Below, piece by piece: positions 1-55,750 of a DNA stretch of 64,000 bases (position 1 is its first letter; every line of letters starts with the position of its first letter). A program made the translations under genes and the position numbers. A model generated the notes under the pieces. That model worked only from the letters and a program-made list of their open reading frames with translations, ran no database searches and was not told the DNA's origin. Source of the stretch: an uncultured virus (IMG/VR IMGVR_UViG_3300034198_030405) (taxonomy: Duplodnaviria > Heunggongvirae > Uroviricota > Caudoviricetes); the IMG/VR virus record IMGVR_UViG_3300034198_030405; one strand, given 5' to 3'.

Positions 1-538
1 ATTCTGTACTCATCTTTGATCCTTTCCTAGATTCATAGAAACAACTCTTGCTACACATTTTTGCATATTTTGTTCTAACCTGTCTGATATGGCAATTAGC
101 ACACATTTTCATTTGACTCATTCTCTCTTTTCGTCTCTTACTGTTAAAAATTTTTAACTTTTCTGAAACCATGTTTTTTGTATCAGTGTTTTTCATTGGA
201 TGAAATTCACTAAATAACTTTCTTGCTCTTTCAAACTGTCTTGAATTTATTTTTCTATTGTCAGTATGATGTATACACATTTTGTTGAATGCAGCTACTA
301 ATTTAGCGCATATATTATATGCAATTTTATGATCTTTATATTGCTTAACATATTCTTTAGCTAGCAAATGATGTAAAATAAAATGCTCTCGCGCTGTTAC
401 ACTGACTATATTATCATCATTATCCTTGCCACCGACACATTTAGGAATAATATGATGCTTCTCATAGTATATATCTTTATTATATTTTCGTGTTTTGCAG
501 CGACCTACTATCTCATGATAAATTTTCGAATATGTCAT
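1..538 (-). CDS. HNH homing endonuclease (runs off the left window edge; not in the ORF track)
   Basis: Hand translation from ATG 538: MTYSKIYHEIVGRCKTRKYNKDIYYEKHHIIPKCVGGKDNDDNIVSVTAREHFILHHLLAKEY. This is the HHIIP..GG.D...N....AREH..H HNH motif, followed later by CANC..CSKSC. The frame is open to position 1. TAAATA lies 5 nt upstream (544-549). Confidence 0.85.
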   Translation of the reverse strand, partial: MTYSKIYHEIVGRCKTRKYNKDIYYEKHHIIPKCVGGKDNDDNIVSVTAREHFILHHLLAKEYVKQYKDHKIAYNICAKLVAAFNKMCIHHTDNRKINSRQFERARKLFSEFHPMKNTDTKNMVSEKLKIFNSKRRKERMSQMKMCANCHIRQVRTKYAKMCSKSCFYESRKGSKMSTE

Positions 539-547
539 ACTCGTATT

Positions 548-626
548 TACTTCAATGTCTACGTCTTCTTACGTATTTTAATTTTTTTCTCTGCTTTATA
601 TTTTGTAGTATCTACTTCAATGTCTA
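548..626. repeat. 14-bp direct repeat TACTTCAATGTCTA (548-561 and 613-626)
   Basis: Exact copies. On the minus strand the copy at 613-626 encodes the IDIEV Exo I motif of the polymerase fragment; the other overlaps its stop codon. Confidence 0.9.
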
Positions 627-960
627 TGAATGCAACACGCACAGGAAATTTTCCAAAATCGCTATCGTTATTATGTTTCCAAAATGCATCAACAAGAAAC
701 TGCTGAACGGGATTGAGGTTTTCAAATAGCCTCTTGGTGCCACAGTCTTTAATAAATTTATTGCGATCAAACTGTGATTTAAATTTACGCGTGCGTAGCT
801 TGGTATTGAAGATGCTAATATCTTTTCCGTTAGCATCTTCAATCATTACGTAGGGAGTATAGTGTGAATCATAAGATACACGCTCACCATTTTCATTCCA
901 TGAATACACCCGCACACACTCTTCTTGTGGAATATAAACTGCATTTCTATAGCCAATCAT
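559..960 (-). CDS. Family B DNA polymerase (gp43-like), N-terminal fragment only
   Basis: Starts YRNAVY..VYSWNENGER..YTPY, has QQFLVDAFW and VAFIDIEV (Exo I), then a basic tail KKIKIRKKT and stop. Lies in the gp46/47/55 gene neighbourhood. Confidence 0.8.
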   Translation of the reverse strand: MIGYRNAVYIPQEECVRVYSWNENGERVSYDSHYTPYVMIEDANGKDISIFNTKLRTRKFKSQFDRNKFIKDCGTKRLFENLNPVQQFLVDAFWKHNNDSDFGKFPVRVAFIDIEVDTTKYKAEKKIKIRKKT

Positions 961-966
961 TCCACA

Positions 967-994
967 ATTATAGCAACTACAAACTTAATATCAA
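967..994 (-). promoter_or_regulatory. Sigma70-like promoter TTGATA-N16-TATAAT, 6 nt before the polymerase ATG
   Basis: -35 at 989-994 and -10 at 967-972. Same geometry as before folE, queD, queE, nrdA and the dpdA-like gene. Confidence 0.6.
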
Positions 995-2208
995 ATGCTA
1001 TTATTAAATTTGTTGAGACATTTGCGATCAGCGCTACCGTATGGTGTTGTAAATAATTCAACATAGCAGTCATGATTTTCATCCTTTTCAAGGAATCTAT
1101 TTTCGCCAATCTTGCGATAATCATATGAATTTTCAAGATATCTATTGGTACGTCTGAGGGTATCTTCAATTTTAAACATCATCTCTTCACCTGTTTCAAA
1201 CTTAATGAGTGCATTTTTATATGTAACCATATCCTGGCATGCAACAGGTAACCCCATGCAGCATGCTTCAATAAACTTGATGTCACTTTTGCATCTGTTG
1301 AAGTTATTATCCTGCAGCGGTGCTATAAGCATCTGCACTTCCAATTCATATATTTTTTTGGGGTAATCATACAATTTTTGCCATGGATGATATTCAATCT
1401 CACCAGATTTAATGTATGGAATAAGCTGCATTGGTGCTGCACCAATGAATATCCACGTATATTTGTGACGGGAATCAATGATGTGTTTAATAACATCTTC
1501 AAAATCATCTTGCTGATTGACTTTATTGTCAACATCAAAATGTGCACCCGATCCTGCATACAAAATACGCGGCTTTTTCTTGTGCTTTAACAGCAAATCA
1601 TAACTGCGCTTAGGATCACTATACCTACCTATCCACCAATCAGGCGGGAAGTTTGGAATTACAGAAATTTCTTTTTTGCCTGTCTTCTGTCTAAAGTAGT
1701 CACGCATATATTCATTTGTAACAGTCACTTCATCACACATGTTTATCATGGTAATGATGTTGTTGCGAATTTCTTCTGATTCAAACGCAAACTTAAATTT
1801 GTTGTAGTCTGGAATATCTTCATGAAACACAACATCATCAATTTCATAAATAATGCGAAATCCGTATTTCTGTCTTAGCTGTGTTAGATATTGCATAAAA
1901 TCTAACTGTGCCTTTGTTGCTTGACGCTGTACTCTTATAGCTTTGAGTGGTGCATAAAATTGCTCGCTTGGATTCATCACCGTTGTTGTAGTAACCATGG
2001 CTTTTTGATTTGCATTCAAAATATGCTCTGGCCAAAACAAACGCCAAAAACCACACCCAGAAGCATCCGCTGCATATTGCAACACACGCGGCAAATCTTC
2101 TTCTGGTGAATGTGGCTGTGATGCAGCTTGCTGCACGGGCAGTATTGGCTGCATTGGCTGTGCAAAAGGCGATTTAAAAGGCTGCCTAAACGGCGATGCA
2201 TTGATCAT
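991..2208 (-). CDS. Glycosyltransferase (GT-B/GT4-like)
   Basis: ADASGCGFWR, YEIDD and APLQDNNFNRCKSDIKFIE motifs, typical of phage glycosyltransferases. Confidence 0.75.
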   Translation of the reverse strand: MINASPFRQPFKSPFAQPMQPILPVQQAASQPHSPEEDLPRVLQYAADASGCGFWRLFWPEHILNANQKAMVTTTTVMNPSEQFYAPLKAIRVQRQATKAQLDFMQYLTQLRQKYGFRIIYEIDDVVFHEDIPDYNKFKFAFESEEIRNNIITMINMCDEVTVTNEYMRDYFRQKTGKKEISVIPNFPPDWWIGRYSDPKRSYDLLLKHKKKPRILYAGSGAHFDVDNKVNQQDDFEDVIKHIIDSRHKYTWIFIGAAPMQLIPYIKSGEIEYHPWQKLYDYPKKIYELEVQMLIAPLQDNNFNRCKSDIKFIEACCMGLPVACQDMVTYKNALIKFETGEEMMFKIEDTLRRTNRYLENSYDYRKIGENRFLEKDENHDCYVELFTTPYGSADRKCLNKFNNSI

Positions 2209-2233: not shown

Positions 2234-4027
2234 TCAATCAACTCGTCTCGTGATACCATTTTCCTTTTCAAGTAAAATTATTTTGCTTGTCGCAAAGAAA
2301 GTACTTTCTTTGCGGTGTGTAATGATGTATGCGCATTCATTGTATGTATTTGCACGCTCAACAATGATGTTATAAACCAGTTCTACGCCTTTATCGTCAA
2401 GACTCGTATCAAGCAATTCATCATAAAACACAACATTGTATGCTACACTTCCCTGCATTCTGCGGATATCGATAAATGCAAACAAACAAGCAAGGTCAAT
2501 GCTTTTACGCTCTGCACCAGAGAAATTAAAATAGCTGCATAATTTGCCCTTGTCGTTAAAGATTTCTTCCTCAAAAAATTCATTGAATCTGCATGTGCAT
2601 TTGAAGCCAATGCGATTGAGATAAAGTTGAAGCTTTGCATTTAAGATGGATAAAATCTTTTTGATGATATAAGATTTGACACCTTCTTCTGAGACAATAA
2701 CTCTTAGGGTGTTTAGGAGATTTACAACATCAAGTTGCTCCTTAACCTTCTTTTCTATTTTTAAAATTTTATCTTGATTGTCAATTATAACATCATCTAC
2801 ATCTGTAACTGCACTTTTTAATGACTCAACGTATGTACCTACAGTGTTAAAATATTCATCAATTACATTTACCTTGCCAACTAATAAATTTTTATTTCTC
2901 TCACTCTGTTCATATGCCTGCAATTTTTGTTTATTTTTAGCAATGAGCTTTTTAATTTCATCCTTTTTGTCACGCACATTGGCGATCTGCTGCTTATCTT
3001 TTGCGAGAGTACTGCTTAGATCATCAATTTGATTTTGTAATTTTGCCTTTTCCTGCTCCAGGTGATTTATATCATTTGCATCAATGGGTTTTAAGCATTT
3101 TGAACAAACATCATCGCTTGTTCCTATTGAATTCTTTTTGATGCTAATATTTTTAATTTGCATTTCATTGACAGCAATTTGTTGAATCAATCCGTCAATG
3201 ATTTCTTGGCATTTATCTACACCTGAATTGAGGCTATTAATTGTATTATTTACCTTGTTGATGTCTACAACTTCAATCAAATTGATTTGCTTTTGTATAA
3301 AATCTCTCTCTGTATTCTTGTTATTAATCGTAGTTTCAATTTCAGTGAGTCTTGCTATTCTGTCAGATAAGATGGACTGTTTTTGATTTTTAAATTTTAT
3401 AAGATTGGTTTGTGTTTCATTGAGTTTAAACAACTCCATGTCATAAAGCTTTTTACAGTCATTATATTCGTCTCTTGCATGTGTAAGCATCTTACTAAAG
3501 ACCTGTAAATTAAAAATGCTTTCAATGAATTTTCTCTTATCTACCTTGTTTTGTGCCATGAACGGAATTGTTCCGTTGAGTGTCATAATTACACAGTTTT
3601 GAAAAATACTTGGCGTAGCTTCAATCAGCTCATTAATATATTGAGTGGTATTTGCCATTGAGTCTCGTGTAACATCATCACCGTCTTTAAATAAAAAACA
3701 TTTGCTTGGATTTAAAGTTCTCACTATCCTATAATCACTGTTTGCATTTGGCGTGTTTACACTAAACTCTAATTCTACAGCACACATTCCATTTGTGATG
3801 CTGTTGCCAATGAAATCCTTTTTAATCTCCCTCATGGTTGTTCCAAAGATGGCAAAATATAGAGCATCAGCAATGGTTGATTTACCAACCCCATTGCGCC
3901 TATCATCCATGTCTTTATTAATACCAGTAATGATATTAATTCCTTCATTAAAATTAATAACAACTGGCTCTCTGCCTACTGATAGAAAGTTACTTATGGA
4001 GAGCTTTTTAAAATCAATATGTTTCAT
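2234..4027 (-). CDS. gp46-like recombination ATPase (SbcC/Rad50)
   Basis: Walker A NGVGKST, coiled coil with CSKC zinc hook, FSGAE signature, YDELLD Walker B. Confidence 0.92.
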   Translation of the reverse strand: MKHIDFKKLSISNFLSVGREPVVINFNEGINIITGINKDMDDRRNGVGKSTIADALYFAIFGTTMREIKKDFIGNSITNGMCAVELEFSVNTPNANSDYRIVRTLNPSKCFLFKDGDDVTRDSMANTTQYINELIEATPSIFQNCVIMTLNGTIPFMAQNKVDKRKFIESIFNLQVFSKMLTHARDEYNDCKKLYDMELFKLNETQTNLIKFKNQKQSILSDRIARLTEIETTINNKNTERDFIQKQINLIEVVDINKVNNTINSLNSGVDKCQEIIDGLIQQIAVNEMQIKNISIKKNSIGTSDDVCSKCLKPIDANDINHLEQEKAKLQNQIDDLSSTLAKDKQQIANVRDKKDEIKKLIAKNKQKLQAYEQSERNKNLLVGKVNVIDEYFNTVGTYVESLKSAVTDVDDVIIDNQDKILKIEKKVKEQLDVVNLLNTLRVIVSEEGVKSYIIKKILSILNAKLQLYLNRIGFKCTCRFNEFFEEEIFNDKGKLCSYFNFSGAERKSIDLACLFAFIDIRRMQGSVAYNVVFYDELLDTSLDDKGVELVYNIIVERANTYNECAYIITHRKESTFFATSKIILLEKENGITRRVD

Positions 4028-5073
4028 TGTAATTTGCGATAGAGATCAATTGCATATTTTTGCAAATCGACTTTGTTAGGATAATTCATCAATTCAATAA
4101 ATTCAATGATTGCTTGTTCAGTATCAATGCCTTCAAAGGAATAATCTATGCCATTAATGTTGCTGCTATCATTCTTGTTTGATTCAGTCTCAAAGGTGAT
4201 TTGCAGTGGCTTAAAACTATGCATCTTGCTCTTAATAATTTCAATGTCATCACTGCTTAACAATTCATCAATGATGAATGTAATGATGTTATTTTTTATC
4301 TTGCTATGCAGTTCTTCAATGCATATGTCTTGCAATGCAATGCTGGAAAGTTTCACTTTGTATATTTTGGGTGAAATGGTGTTGTTGATGAATTCATACT
4401 CCTTGGTATCTCCATCAAAAATATAATATCCTTTGTCATTGTCAGCATCATTAAGATCCATTTGAAATGGATTACCCACATATACTATTTTACCAATTTC
4501 AAAAACTCTCTCATCTCTAAAGTGAAAATGACCTGAAAAAACGAGCGGCGATTTTTCGAGCAACTGTCTGATGCTTATGCCGTGGTCACACAATTTAAAT
4601 GTATTCATTTTGAACGTTTGAATTTCAAAATGACCAAACACAACATCGCATGCTGCAATTTGCTCAATGTCTGTGCCCCATGGGCATAAAAATGCTTCAC
4701 AGTTGTCTCCAATCCTTGCATGTGTCGGCTTGTCATATACGAACACATTGCTACGACCTTGCATAATGCTCAAAGAATTTATATCACTCTTTTCCTTATA
4801 GAAGCAATCATGATTGCCTGGAAACATATGCAAGTTAAAGTCTGATAATGCACTTAAAATTCTACAAGCTACATGAATAGTATTGACTGCAACAGCATCT
4901 CTTTCATGAAAAAAATCTCCACAAAATATTATATCTGTTATGCACCTATTTTTAAGATCATTCGCAAACCACTGCACCCATTCAAGTGATATATCATGCC
5001 ATGCAGCACCATTGCAATGTACACCAACATGCAGGTCACTGAAAATCGCTATCTTGTTCGTAGTCTGAATCAT
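4024..5073 (-). CDS. gp47-like recombination nuclease (SbcD/Mre11)
   Basis: SDLH, GDFF, GNHD and SGHFH metallophosphoesterase motifs; adjacent to gp46. Confidence 0.92.
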   Translation of the reverse strand: MIQTTNKIAIFSDLHVGVHCNGAAWHDISLEWVQWFANDLKNRCITDIIFCGDFFHERDAVAVNTIHVACRILSALSDFNLHMFPGNHDCFYKEKSDINSLSIMQGRSNVFVYDKPTHARIGDNCEAFLCPWGTDIEQIAACDVVFGHFEIQTFKMNTFKLCDHGISIRQLLEKSPLVFSGHFHFRDERVFEIGKIVYVGNPFQMDLNDADNDKGYYIFDGDTKEYEFINNTISPKIYKVKLSSIALQDICIEELHSKIKNNIITFIIDELLSSDDIEIIKSKMHSFKPLQITFETESNKNDSSNINGIDYSFEGIDTEQAIIEFIELMNYPNKVDLQKYAIDLYRKLQ

Positions 5074-11221: not shown

Positions 11222-12100
11222 ATGTCAAAATTTTTTGAACAATATAATGCAGTGCTTGAAAAAAATCTCCAAAAAGTGCGACTCAAAGTTGATCCACTTA
11301 ACAAATATGCTGAAGATTATGGTCAATATGATGGATATGTTGGATATATTCTTGCAGAAACAGAAAATGAAATCAAATTTTTTTATAACAGTAGTACTCT
11401 AAATATTCCTAAAAAAGCAGTTGTAATTGAAAATATGGTAGCTAATTACCTACAAGGTGCTGCGGGCCAGAAGCCAGTTGGTGCATTGGGTGCATTAGGC
11501 AGCATTACACGCGGCGTAGCGGGTACAGCTGCGAGGGCAGTATTTGGACCTCAAGTTACAGGAACATCAGCGGTGCCTGGTTCAGATACAAATAATTCAA
11601 CGCAAAAAACACCAACAACAAGCAAAGACAGGATAACAATGATTTCGCAAGATATGTTGGGTAAATCCTTTGGAGTTGTAGACAGCAAAGGTACAGCTTC
11701 CTTTACTGGGTCGAGTAATAAGACCTTTTATATATTAAAAATACAGCTTTTAAATAAAACTAAAAATGTACTTGAAAATAAAAGCTTTAGAGATATAGCT
11801 AATTTTTATACATATCTTTTTGAAAATACTAATCAGCCACCACCCATACCACCTACTAATCAGCCACCACCCATACCACCTACTAATCAGCCACCACCCA
11901 TACCACCTACTAATCAGCCACCGCAAAAAGCAGGCATTAAATTTACAGATATCATATCAAAGCCAGAATTTTTGAACGAAAATGCTCTTTTTACATGTAT
12001 GAATATAAAAGACAACTCACTAGTTCAAGGATACGGTCTTCTTACAAGAGTTCCTAATTCAAACGATTTTGTTATAAACTTTTCGGCTCAGCAATCTTGA
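11222..12100 (+). CDS. Hypothetical protein with Pro-rich tandem repeats
   Basis: TAAATA 5 nt upstream; KVRLKVDP..YVGYILAE N-terminal domain; (TNQPPPIPP)x3. Confidence 0.7.
   Translation: MSKFFEQYNAVLEKNLQKVRLKVDPLNKYAEDYGQYDGYVGYILAETENEIKFFYNSSTLNIPKKAVVIENMVANYLQGAAGQKPVGALGALGSITRGVAGTAARAVFGPQVTGTSAVPGSDTNNSTQKTPTTSKDRITMISQDMLGKSFGVVDSKGTASFTGSSNKTFYILKIQLLNKTKNVLENKSFRDIANFYTYLFENTNQPPPIPPTNQPPPIPPTNQPPPIPPTNQPPQKAGIKFTDIISKPEFLNENALFTCMNIKDNSLVQGYGLLTRVPNSNDFVINFSAQQS
11827..11922 (+). repeat. 27-bp tandem repeat, about 3.5 copies
   Basis: TACTAATCAGCCACCACCCATACCACC at 11827, 11854 and 11881, with a partial copy at 11908. Confidence 0.95.
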
Positions 12101-12124
12101 TTTTATAAATTTTAGTAGTATATT
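12097..12124 (+). promoter_or_regulatory. Sigma70-like promoter TTGATT-N16-TATATT, 5 nt before the queD ATG
   Basis: Same hexamers and spacing as upstream of nrdA (32109-32136). Confidence 0.65.
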
Positions 12125-12129
12125 GTGAT

Positions 12130-12756
12130 ATGTTTACAAGTACTAAAGTAATAGAGTTAGGATCATGTGCTTTTCGTCAGTGGAGAGCAAAACATTCACA
12201 CTGTCAATTCATTCATGGCTACCAGCTTAAAGCAAAGTTTTGGTTCAGATGTGAAGAGTTGGATGATAAAAATTGGGCGGTTGATTTTGGCAGCCTTAAA
12301 GAGCTCAAAAAACAACTACAATATATTTTTGATCACACGTATTGTGTAGCTGCTGATGATCCAGCAATTGATCAATTTAGAGCATTAGATGCAGCAGGCA
12401 TCATTCAGCTTCGTGTTTTTGAAAAAGGCGTTGGAGTAGAAAGAGCTGCTGAAAAATGCTTTGAAATTGCATCACAGTTTCTTAAAGAGAAATATGGTGA
12501 ACGCTGCAGCGTCAATCAAGTTGAGGTGTTTGAGCACGAAGATAATTCTGCAATTTATAGTAATTGCTTTGGCTGCAAGGATAGGGAAATTCCTGAAGAT
12601 GGTGGTTATTCAGAAGCAGCGGATGTTATTACAATTCATGAAATAACTCCGCTACCTCAGACTGAAACTACACGCAATGGAGGTAGACCAGCAAATGTTG
12701 GCTCACATGTATCAACTGGCAAAAGTGATTGGTTCAAGGGTACCTCTTGGGGTTAA
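12130..12756 (+). CDS. queD: 6-carboxytetrahydropterin synthase
   Basis: SCAFRQWRA.HSHCQFIHGY, VDFG.LK, FDHT, VFEHEDNSA. Confidence 0.9.
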   Translation: MFTSTKVIELGSCAFRQWRAKHSHCQFIHGYQLKAKFWFRCEELDDKNWAVDFGSLKELKKQLQYIFDHTYCVAADDPAIDQFRALDAAGIIQLRVFEKGVGVERAAEKCFEIASQFLKEKYGERCSVNQVEVFEHEDNSAIYSNCFGCKDREIPEDGGYSEAADVITIHEITPLPQTETTRNGGRPANVGSHVSTGKSDWFKGTSWG

Positions 12757-43468: not shown

Positions 43469-44386
43469 ATGAAATATAATTATTCACTCGGTCTGTGCTG
43501 CATTTCTCTTAAATGTAAAGAGCAAGGCATTAAGTTTCAAACTATGACCTACACGCGGTTTGCTAAACTGCCGCGCAAACAAGCAGAATCAATTCTTGCA
43601 CTGCGCATCATCAACAACTTTAAAGCTGTTGCTAAAATTGTACACATGTGCAAGGACATGGGCATTGAGCGATATCGCATACCGTCAGACCTCGCACCGG
43701 TAATCAACCACCCTCTTGTCAACATGACACTACTCGACTTTGATGATGCAGATAAAATCTTCGATGCCATTGATGAAGCTAAGCAGGCCATTATTGATAC
43801 TAACATTCGAACCAGTGCGCATCCTTCTGAATTCATCTCCCTAACAAGTGAAGATGACGGTGTTGTTGCAAACTCTATTAGAGACCTAGAGCAACATGGT
43901 GAGATCTTTGATCTCCTTGGGTTGCCCCGGGGATACGAGTCTCCTCTTAATATTCACATTCGACAACAAGGCGACGTGGAGAAACTGGGGCAAACGTTTC
44001 GTCGCAATCTATCCAAATGTTCCGACTCTGTACGCAAGCGGTTAGTTGTTGAAGTGAATGACAACAAGCAAGGTCAATGGACTATTCAAGAGCTTTACAA
44101 TCAATTGTACAAGACTGAACAAATTCCGGTAACATATGATAACTTGCATCATGAAATGATCGGAGATGCCATGAGTCATCAAGAAGCATTTGATGTAGCA
44201 TATAGCACATGGCCTTGTCTTCCTGTATTTCACTACAGTGAAGGAATTGATGGTACTCGCAAGCATGCAGACTATGCTAATCTGTTGCCTCAAGATTTCG
44301 GTATGCCTGTTGATTACGAAGTAGAACTCAAAATGAAAGATTTAGCCATTGAAAAAATGCTTTTAAAAATGCGCGCAGCAGCATAA
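43469..44386 (+). CDS. uvsE: UV-damage endonuclease (UvsE/UVDE)
   Basis: LGLCCIS, YRIPSDL, SAHP..F, NIH, RLVVE.ND, YDNLHH, FHYSE, KHAD, EVELKMKD. Confidence 0.88.
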   Translation: MKYNYSLGLCCISLKCKEQGIKFQTMTYTRFAKLPRKQAESILALRIINNFKAVAKIVHMCKDMGIERYRIPSDLAPVINHPLVNMTLLDFDDADKIFDAIDEAKQAIIDTNIRTSAHPSEFISLTSEDDGVVANSIRDLEQHGEIFDLLGLPRGYESPLNIHIRQQGDVEKLGQTFRRNLSKCSDSVRKRLVVEVNDNKQGQWTIQELYNQLYKTEQIPVTYDNLHHEMIGDAMSHQEAFDVAYSTWPCLPVFHYSEGIDGTRKHADYANLLPQDFGMPVDYEVELKMKDLAIEKMLLKMRAAA

Positions 44387-44397
44387 ATAAAAGCATT

Positions 44398-48008: not shown

Positions 48009-48066
48009 GCTATTATTTATATGAAAGTCTTATTTTTGCAAGATAATTTTTTTGGCGTTTGTGTAT

Positions 48067-55735: not shown

Positions 55736-55750
55736 GCAGTTATTTATGCA

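Follow-up and report, generated by a model that had tools for sequence, protein, structure and literature searches.

We analysed a 64-kb stretch of DNA (hereafter the window) from an uncultured virus of the Caudoviricetes (IMG/VR record IMGVR_UViG_3300034198_030405), at one end of which the gene for the family B DNA polymerase (PolB; gp43) is interrupted immediately past the codons of exonuclease motif I (Exo I). The interruption is a cassette that carries a free-standing HNH homing endonuclease gene, and the window holds its left part, between positions 2 and 626. In reading direction, the features of the junction are the following:

559-960, minus strand: N-terminal fragment of gp43 (N-fragment), 133 residues, the TAG stop lying within these coordinates.
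613-626, minus strand: copy 1 of the Exo I repeat, codons (I)DIEV; base 613 is the left boundary of the cassette.
562-612, minus strand: cassette-borne tail of 17 codons, DTTKYKAEKKIKIRKKT, the predicted first strand of a split mini-domain.
548-561, minus strand: copy 2 of the Exo I repeat, overlapping the TAG stop of the N-fragment (559-561); candidate operator of the HNH gene or mimic of its homing site.
544-550, minus strand: GTAAATA, late-promoter-like, with one mismatch to ATAAATA; it overlaps the end of copy 2 and ends 5 nucleotides before the HNH ATG.
2-538, minus strand: free-standing HNH homing endonuclease gene, first 179 of 273 codons, the rest lying beyond the window.

The 133-residue open reading frame (ORF) ends in ...VRVAFIDIEV, followed by DTTKYKAEKKIKIRKKT and TAG. 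Over residues 1-116 it shares 99% identity with the beginning of a 498-residue ORF in locus L001, which carries the Pfam domains DNA_pol_B_exo1 and DNA_pol_B, and 62% with the beginning of an intact 849-residue polymerase in L002. By these alignments residues 1-116 are native polymerase that ends at Exo I (FIDIEV) and, by comparison with L001, they are the only polymerase coding in the whole window. Taken alone, the ORF matched nothing in Pfam, PHROG or the PDB, the PDB sequence search returning chance matches only; the protein is present in the protein database as P0146. An earlier, sequence-only reading of this DNA had described a polymerase frame that stops 17 residues past FIDIEV in a basic tail and whose remainder lies outside the window, and both statements are borne out by the ORF and by the comparison with L001 and L002. 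That reading had left room for an assembly error in the repeat or in the stop. The split layout is not an assembly error, because contigs of other runs and of another study carry it: a contig of run X1, the likely source, covered window positions 1-1200 with 0 differences at a depth of 91 and ran about 34 kb past position 1, a contig of run X2 covered positions 550-1052, and in run X3, from a different study, a 151-nucleotide contig over 503-653 contained both repeat copies with 1 difference.

The same site was found with and without the cassette in near-identical genomes. The sister genome G002, which contains L001 and is about 96% complete, is 98.8% identical to the window over 8389 nucleotides, up to base 613. 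Past this base L001 reads without interruption as DIEV-FSPLSFPTAEQAGHPINIITIHD (DIEV-FSPLSFP), and when G002 was searched, both the HNH gene and the 51 nucleotides of tail DNA were absent. A contig of run X4, labelled freshwater metagenome, also matched the window down to 613 and then continued as L001-type, HNH-free sequence. Presence and absence at one exact site are seen a second time between L015 and its close relative L017; the tail is absent from L001, L002 and L017, and the leader described below is absent from L017. The comparison with uninterrupted relatives that the sequence-only reading had proposed is thereby answered: L001 and L017 read through the site without any cassette. On this pattern, the interruption is a recent insertion of a mobile cassette and not a decayed gene.

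The HNH protein of the window matches phrog_655, annotated 'homing endonuclease', with an E-value of 9e-34 over residues 1-142, and Pfam HNH_5 at 17.5 bits, under the cut-off of 27.5. The full-length HNH protein is P0001 (273 residues), in which the motif ..EKHHIIPK..N..REH.. can be read. No close relative of the window HNH protein was present in viral or metagenome contig collections, and the exact 41-nucleotide junction pattern of the left flank was unmatched in viral and metagenome contigs. The nearest record to the window, G001, ends at about window position 2138. A collection of named phages contained no match for the window DNA, the N-fragment or the leader; the closest named-phage polymerases are less than 60% identical, and the best ranked, that of LIMEstone1 (28%), has a different insert past Exo I.

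Complete cassettes were recovered from relatives. A search with the uninterrupted L001 polymerase part returned proteins of 420-435 residues that start with a new leader of about 45 residues and join the polymerase at FP..HPINIIT. In L015, the N-fragment ends in DIEV-DTSKYKNDNQIKIRKKRST and a stop, followed by a 14-nucleotide spacer, an HNH protein of 270 residues (48% identical to that of the window) and a C-terminal polymerase fragment (C-fragment), whose ATG lies 2 nucleotides past the HNH stop and which begins MEQYQYIKLGDFACNKNMREEYEVWDEEKQQWVNYDNSCYVQQTE-FPAAEYAKHPINIITIHD. L015 and L016 share this complete cassette, and L027, L028 and L093 have the L015-type layout, with HNH proteins 38-39% identical to that of the window. 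Across the homologous cassettes the HNH genes encode 270-273 residues and the C-fragment ATG falls 0-2 nucleotides past the HNH stop or overlaps it. L017 is uninterrupted (DIEV-YSPDE-FPAAEY); it matches the C-fragment protein at 100% identity, and its flanking DNA agrees with that of L015 at 95% on the left and at 99% on the right. The right flank has 4 silent differences within its first 30 nucleotides and only 8 in the next 1070, a cluster that fits co-conversion or target immunity. By homology, the DNA left of the window would hold the HNH stop, then an ATG and a leader of about 45 codons running into FPTAEQAGHPINIITIHD.

Both peptides that the cassette adds to the polymerase carry conserved motifs, ..IKIRKK in the basic tail and ..YEVWDE..W..SCY in the leader. 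A KIRKK-type tail was found in five of the six N-fragment clusters formed at 90% identity, and also across the split loci. The sixth cluster, P0148 (121 residues), ends in DIEAVAKDK without such a tail and may represent another type of break at this site or a truncated gene call. The tails of the window and of L015 differ by synonymous changes, which argues that the tail is translated. The leader motif YEV[WY]DE served to collect 45 viral loci, 35 of them split and 10 continuous. Of these split loci, 32 of 35 have an HNH gene from the same family immediately upstream; these include L190-L192, in which it is a C-terminal remnant only. No HNH match was found in the upstream region of L206 (which keeps remnant coding) and L210, while L222 starts at a contig edge, so that its upstream region is absent from the contig; in L211 the HNH gene is broken into two ORFs. 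Because the polymerase is still split in L190-L192, L206, L210 and L211, the split outlives the endonuclease. Intein or split-intein chemistry at the Exo I break was considered and rejected: the first inserted residue, behind DIE(V/T), is no fixed Cys or Ser but differs between lineages (D, Y, A, H, E, G, K, N, P, S, T or V), and the leaders have no conserved His-Asn. The sequence-only reading had rightly seen no intein nucleophile here.

When a leader profile was run against 1.84 billion representative proteins, 83 representatives matched. The leader stands at the protein start in 49 (48 begin with M, 1 with V) and is internal in 34, namely 31 continuous polymerases and 3 unrelated proteins. 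In the continuous polymerases, which are more distant than the uninterrupted close relatives named above, a tail-like ..hK(I/V)RK.., a short loop and a leader-like segment follow DIE(V/T) in frame. These alignments, together with structure predictions, indicate that tail and leader are the two parts of an alpha/beta mini-domain of about 60 residues, which is uninterrupted in other polymerases. For a continuous form (L096, residues 1-400), the AlphaFold2 model had a mean predicted local distance difference test (pLDDT) score of 95. In this model the Exo I strand (108-115) is followed by a 'tail' strand (125-130, MVKIRK), a loop (131-135) and another strand (136-140), then by two helices, strands 154-158 (YEIYD) and 161-164, and the exonuclease strand 186-193. 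The alignment places the break of the split forms in loop 131-135, that is in the loop of a beta-hairpin. Folded alone, the mini-domain gave the same elements (pLDDT 82.5), and an ESM Atlas look-up returned clusters of PolB exonuclease domains only, at 0.87.

We also modelled the two halves of the L015 polymerase as a complex. The interaction prediction score from aligned errors (ipSAE) was 0.87, a mark reached by 116 of 157 solved complexes and by 2 of 215 mismatched pairs, and the best of three controls scored 0.00. Contacts agreed to at least 92% between runs, with a partner pLDDT of at least 88, and the modelled interface includes leader residues 2-13 and N-fragment residues 106-132. Such an arrangement would amount to strand complementation: the tail strand would dock on the leader module and in this way keep the Exo I strand attached to the remaining exonuclease domain. 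The sequence-only reading had envisaged a two-chain polymerase held together by a charged tail; the two chains stand, from the homologous cassettes, and the mere charged tail gives way to what is predicted to be the first beta-strand of the mini-domain.

The second element that distinguishes the cassette is its copy of the Exo I codons. The 14-mer TAGACATTGAAGTA occurs at exactly two sites in the 64-kb window, 613-626 and 548-561, 65 nucleotides apart, as had been noticed from the sequence, and the match extends to 18 of 19 bases (626-608 versus 561-543). Compared over an 18-mer around copy 1, the two copies agree at 15 of 18 positions, a match equalled in 1 of 2000 shuffles. Copy 2 is in phase with the HNH ATG (538-536), giving DIEV-NTS-MTYSK, again as previously noted, though this link is not conserved: only 4 of 17 lineages have a second copy whose frame stays in phase and open up to the HNH start. 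What is conserved is its presence. Of the 19 split lineages left after de-duplication, 17 have a DIE-like core (GAY-ATH-...) in the stretch from the tail stop to the HNH ATG, no such core being found in L209 and L219, and in most lineages the second copy falls 65-86 nucleotides past the real Exo I codons. It matches the 18-mer of its own Exo I at 14 positions in L200, 15 in L208 and 16 in L221 (0 of 2000 shuffles in each case), and the unusual DIEC codon of L208 is mirrored in its second copy. The mean identity to the own host was 12.4 of 18, against 10.9 of 18 for other hosts, a result reached by 1 of 20000 permutations, which overstates independence since related lineages enter the test. Free drift after a single duplication would yield equal values, so the excess suggests that selection or conversion keeps the copy like its own host. 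A fresh target-site duplication made by the HNH insertion, one of the options of the sequence-only reading, does not fit these data: both copies lie left of the HNH gene in reading direction, and the second is an old and conserved part of the cassette.

Following the second copy, before the HNH ATG, ATAAATA is found exactly in 13 of the 19 lineages; when up to one mismatch is allowed, 18 have it. In the window this motif has 25 copies, 13 of which fall within 40 nucleotides upstream of the ATG of a long ORF, against 0.6 expected; 12 of these 13 end 5-9 nucleotides before the ATG and 1 abuts it. Examples are seen at 48014-48021 (minus strand), 55741-55747 (minus strand) and 44383-44389 (plus strand). 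If these are late promoters, as their placement suggests, the late mRNAs would have almost no leader ahead of the start codon. Target-like sequence (14 of 14 bases, 18 of 19 when extended) is thus found directly upstream of the HNH ORF, overlapping GTAAATA. The likeliest role that we see for the second Exo I copy is to mimic the HNH recognition sequence on the enzyme's own promoter, as a candidate operator through which the enzyme would limit its own expression in the manner of I-TevI; the comparison assumes that the Exo I codons are the real target of the enzyme, and we hold this role to be a realistic possibility, somewhat short of an even chance. A conserved target copy that tracks its host is the most testable new point of this study.

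Other arrangements were noted around this promoter. In L213 (about 2330-2400) an inverted second Exo I copy lies just downstream of TATAAATA, forming a palindrome that brackets the promoter, and in L231 (about 2400-2450) two direct Exo I-like copies flank it. In the window, a 7-bp hairpin (CGAGUAU-GAC-AUAUUCG; 527-543, minus strand) surrounds the HNH start codon. RNA folds at the junction gave z-scores of -0.40 in the window, where the region as a whole folds no better than shuffled sequence, and -1.78 in L015, and the hairpin shape was not conserved in L015. No RNA data set was listed as containing this stretch of the window.

Taking the evidence together, we consider it probable that an HNH cassette invaded gp43 of a T4-like phage right after Exo I, that the polymerase is made as separate chains held by a tail/leader clasp, and that neither RNA nor protein splicing is involved. 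The cassette would comprise, in order, a basic tail of 17-19 codons with its stop, the degenerate Exo I copy, the ATAAATA-like late promoter, the HNH gene, and a start codon with the leader of about 45 codons. It would sit in the only DNA polymerase gene of the phage, immediately past the Exo I codons. As the break falls in the hairpin loop of the mini-domain, the tail strand could dock onto the leader and hold the chains together. Judging from its presence and absence in near-identical genomes, the cassette would spread by homing into HNH-free alleles, carrying the mini-domain halves along.

Several points weigh against parts of this explanation. The two-chain form in the phage of the window rests on homologous cassettes, since the window ends before the C-fragment and the 3' end of the HNH gene. 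Chain assembly and activity are predicted only, and the score of the L015 complex may stem from the solved structures of PolB relatives, expressing likeness and not binding. On the left flank of the window no co-conversion signature was seen, the single-nucleotide differences lying 91, 97, 250, 285 and 370 nucleotides from the junction with a background of about 1.1%. The promoter motif of the window HNH gene is mismatched (GTAAATA-CGAGT-ATG). The second copy of L187 (the L015 lineage) is weak, at 11 of 18, with 35 of 2000 shuffles as good. Finally, the permutation test draws on related lineages, and own-host matching could also result from gene conversion acting on the two copies.

The last points lead to the most serious rival for the second Exo I copy, namely that it has no function, being a relic of the insertion or being kept similar by short-tract conversion or repair during homing. 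Closely spaced repeats could be made alike by phage recombination, and conversion also predicts own-host matching. Moreover, copies are weak or absent in some lineages: next to L187, L215 matches at 10 of 18 only (499 of 2000 shuffles as good) and L209 and L219 have no core, while L206 retains the second copy though its HNH gene is deleted. Yet among lineages with HNH proteins that reach an E-value of only 1e-25 against the family profile, 14-18 bp without function should have decayed, whereas 17 of 19 keep the DIE-like core, invariably flanked by the tail stop and the HNH promoter motif. Repeats of 14 bp that lie 65-86 nucleotides apart are, in addition, short for homologous conversion. We thus regard a functionless copy as a credible alternative to the operator, if one that we would put at about one chance in three.

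For the clasp itself, a different origin was envisaged. The mini-domain could descend from an intein split at an atypical place, its N-piece very short as in the VidaL and AceL inteins, and now be a worn remnant that has lost its splicing chemistry and serves as a non-covalent clasp; the HNH gene would then be placed like the endonuclease of a 'fractured gene' and would control itself via the target copy that co-evolves with the host. When the mini-domain model was compared with known structures, about 16 of the 50 listed matches were inteins, all weak (best Z 4.1, root-mean-square deviation 3.5 over 58 residues), the likeness being to the N-terminal halves of inteins. Foldseek with the same model returned nothing at E-values up to 0.001, Pfam found no intein family in the mini-domain, and an hhalign comparison with the N-intein of L001 gave a probability of 0.2%. 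We consider this origin improbable; if true, it would show how protein splicing gave way to simple docking as the means of neutralising a gene break.

The proposal that two chains are translated and assembled was also set against an intron, as suggested by the sequence-only reading: the HNH gene would lie inside a group I intron whose core is beyond the window, and splicing would restore a single polymerase mRNA. Group I introns do occur elsewhere in these polymerase genes (Rfam, 84.9 bits in L001 and 81.6 bits in L015), and the downstream sequence of the window itself lies beyond its edge. However, Rfam detected no Intron_gpI in window positions 1-1000 at E-values up to 10, and no intron in the complete cassettes of L015, L027 and L093 at E-values up to 0.1. 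With the C-fragment ATG 0-2 nucleotides past the HNH stop or overlapping it, these cassettes have no room for an intron core. The leader is, moreover, conserved as a protein with a Met start in 48 of 49 representatives, and the tail is conserved as a protein with synonymous changes. An intron is therefore very unlikely.

Equally remote is a dead, decaying polymerase copy next to an intact polymerase elsewhere in the genome, the outcome that the sequence-only reading had named as fatal to its own proposals. A second copy could be accommodated in the part of the genome beyond the 64-kb window, but PolB occupies one locus only in the sister genome, whose functional-looking gene the N-fragment matches at 99% identity, and the frames of split N- and C-fragments stay open across many diverged lineages. 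Least credible of all is a ribosome hop or a deletion from copy 1 to copy 2 that fuses the polymerase N-fragment to HNH: the repeat does offer matched codons and the landing frame of the window enters the HNH ORF, but that frame is conserved in so few lineages, the would-be take-off codon has no stop after it (as bypass in T4 gene 60 requires), neither the joint nor the 65-bp deletion was seen among contigs of four runs (which can miss rare forms), and the fusion would not restore a polymerase.

Reading downstream, the left-end gene order is gp47, gp46, a glycosyltransferase, the 133-residue ORF and the HNH ORF, all on the minus strand. The three upstream genes are:

4024-5073, minus strand: SbcD-like gp47.
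2234-4027, minus strand: SbcC-like gp46.
991-2208, minus strand: glycosyltransferase, 405 residues (phrog_7162, E-value 1.2e-24).

The glycosyltransferase gene between gp46 and the polymerase gene occupies the same position in L001, L002, L015, L017 and L024. In the sister genome, the same polymerase gene (L001:10001-15288) contains three more interruptions. The first, near residue 498, is a break of the 43A/43B type: a GIY-YIG-like ORF accompanies it on the opposite strand (11483-12364), and its ends look helical, ..ELSRIEEQLKNT before the stop and MKDNKQLLERANYLRDKIAQL.. at the following start. The second is an ORF-less group I intron past ..NSVYG (12460-12728), which gives the 84.9 bits cited above. 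The third is a split intein at GDTD|S, with a Vsr-like gene (REase_MTES_1575) between its halves.

These results have consequences for annotation, since N-fragments like the 133-residue ORF match no Pfam or PHROG family and can be mistaken for pseudogenes or hypothetical proteins. The tail and leader motifs (..IKIRKK and YEVWDE..W..SCY) mark a common and functional-looking split form, which accounts for 49 of the 83 representative clusters of the leader profile. For enzymology, the break would point to a selection-tested site at which a family B polymerase can be cut inside its proofreading domain, with a small docking module supplied. A second independent case beside the NrdA protein of phage Aeh1 would make cassette-supplied docking peptides a general route by which genes survive a break. 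And should the second Exo I copy act as an operator, promoter-adjacent DNA could reveal the recognition sequences of uncultured free-standing endonucleases.

In the literature, we found no description of a gp43 split past Exo I by an HNH cassette, nor of the mini-domain; PMC12695635 concerns T7-like split polymerases and is unrelated. Several known systems share parts of the arrangement. In T4, mobA is inserted between genes 39 and 60 (PMC2988022). Gene 60 is translated with a bypass of 50 nucleotides, and there, as here, a short extra segment with matching codons at both ends adjoins an endonuclease gene that splits an essential gene. The resemblance goes no further: in the cassettes the frame downstream of copy 2 is not conserved, being maintained in just 4 of 17 lineages, and copy 1 has no stop behind it. 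In fractured genes, split inteins have an endonuclease gene between their halves (Dassa et al. 2009, PMC2677866). There too, the host gene is in two ORFs around a free-standing endonuclease gene, with peptide modules added at both ends; unlike those elements, the Exo I break has no intein chemistry and the leader has no conserved His-Asn end. The split intein of L001, further down the same polymerase gene, is exactly a fractured-gene element.

Gene 43 itself is split (43A/43B) in the Aeromonas salmonicida phages 44RR and 25 (Petrov, Karam et al.; PMC2988022, PMC2677866). As here, a T4-family gp43 is encoded by two cistrons, and phage 25 has a free-standing endonuclease gene between them. The intervening element differs, reportedly being a GIY-YIG/seg-type gene or an untranslated spacer and not an HNH gene. 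To our knowledge, the break in these two phages is not at Exo I. The break near residue 498 of L001 may be comparable to it.

For the candidate operator, the model is I-TevI of the T4 td intron, whose operator is 15/20 identical to the homing site, overlaps a late promoter, is bound by I-TevI and lowers expression (Edgell et al. 2004, reviewed in PMC2988022). In both systems a target-like sequence stands directly upstream of the endonuclease ORF on a late-promoter motif, at 15/20 identity there and 14/14 (18/19 extended) here. I-TevI, as that review describes it, is a GIY-YIG enzyme within an intron, with measured binding and repression, while the window offers a free-standing HNH gene known from its sequence.

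By analogy, the closest known case is the nrdA-a/mobE/nrdA-b gene in pieces of Aeromonas phage Aeh1, in which insertion-derived tails are essential to the split enzyme (Crona et al. 2010, PMC3045599; see also Friedrich et al. 2007, as cited in PMC2988022). The two differ in that the host gene here is a polymerase, broken directly past Exo I, whose assembly is seen in models; the tails here appear to be parts of a mini-domain that is uninterrupted in other polymerases, and the cassette is found in dozens of diverged lineages. In both, judging for the window from its homologous cassettes, a free-standing HNH-family gene splits an essential replication-related gene into two translated ORFs, with unique C- and N-terminal tails that arrived with the insertion and with neither RNA nor protein splicing.

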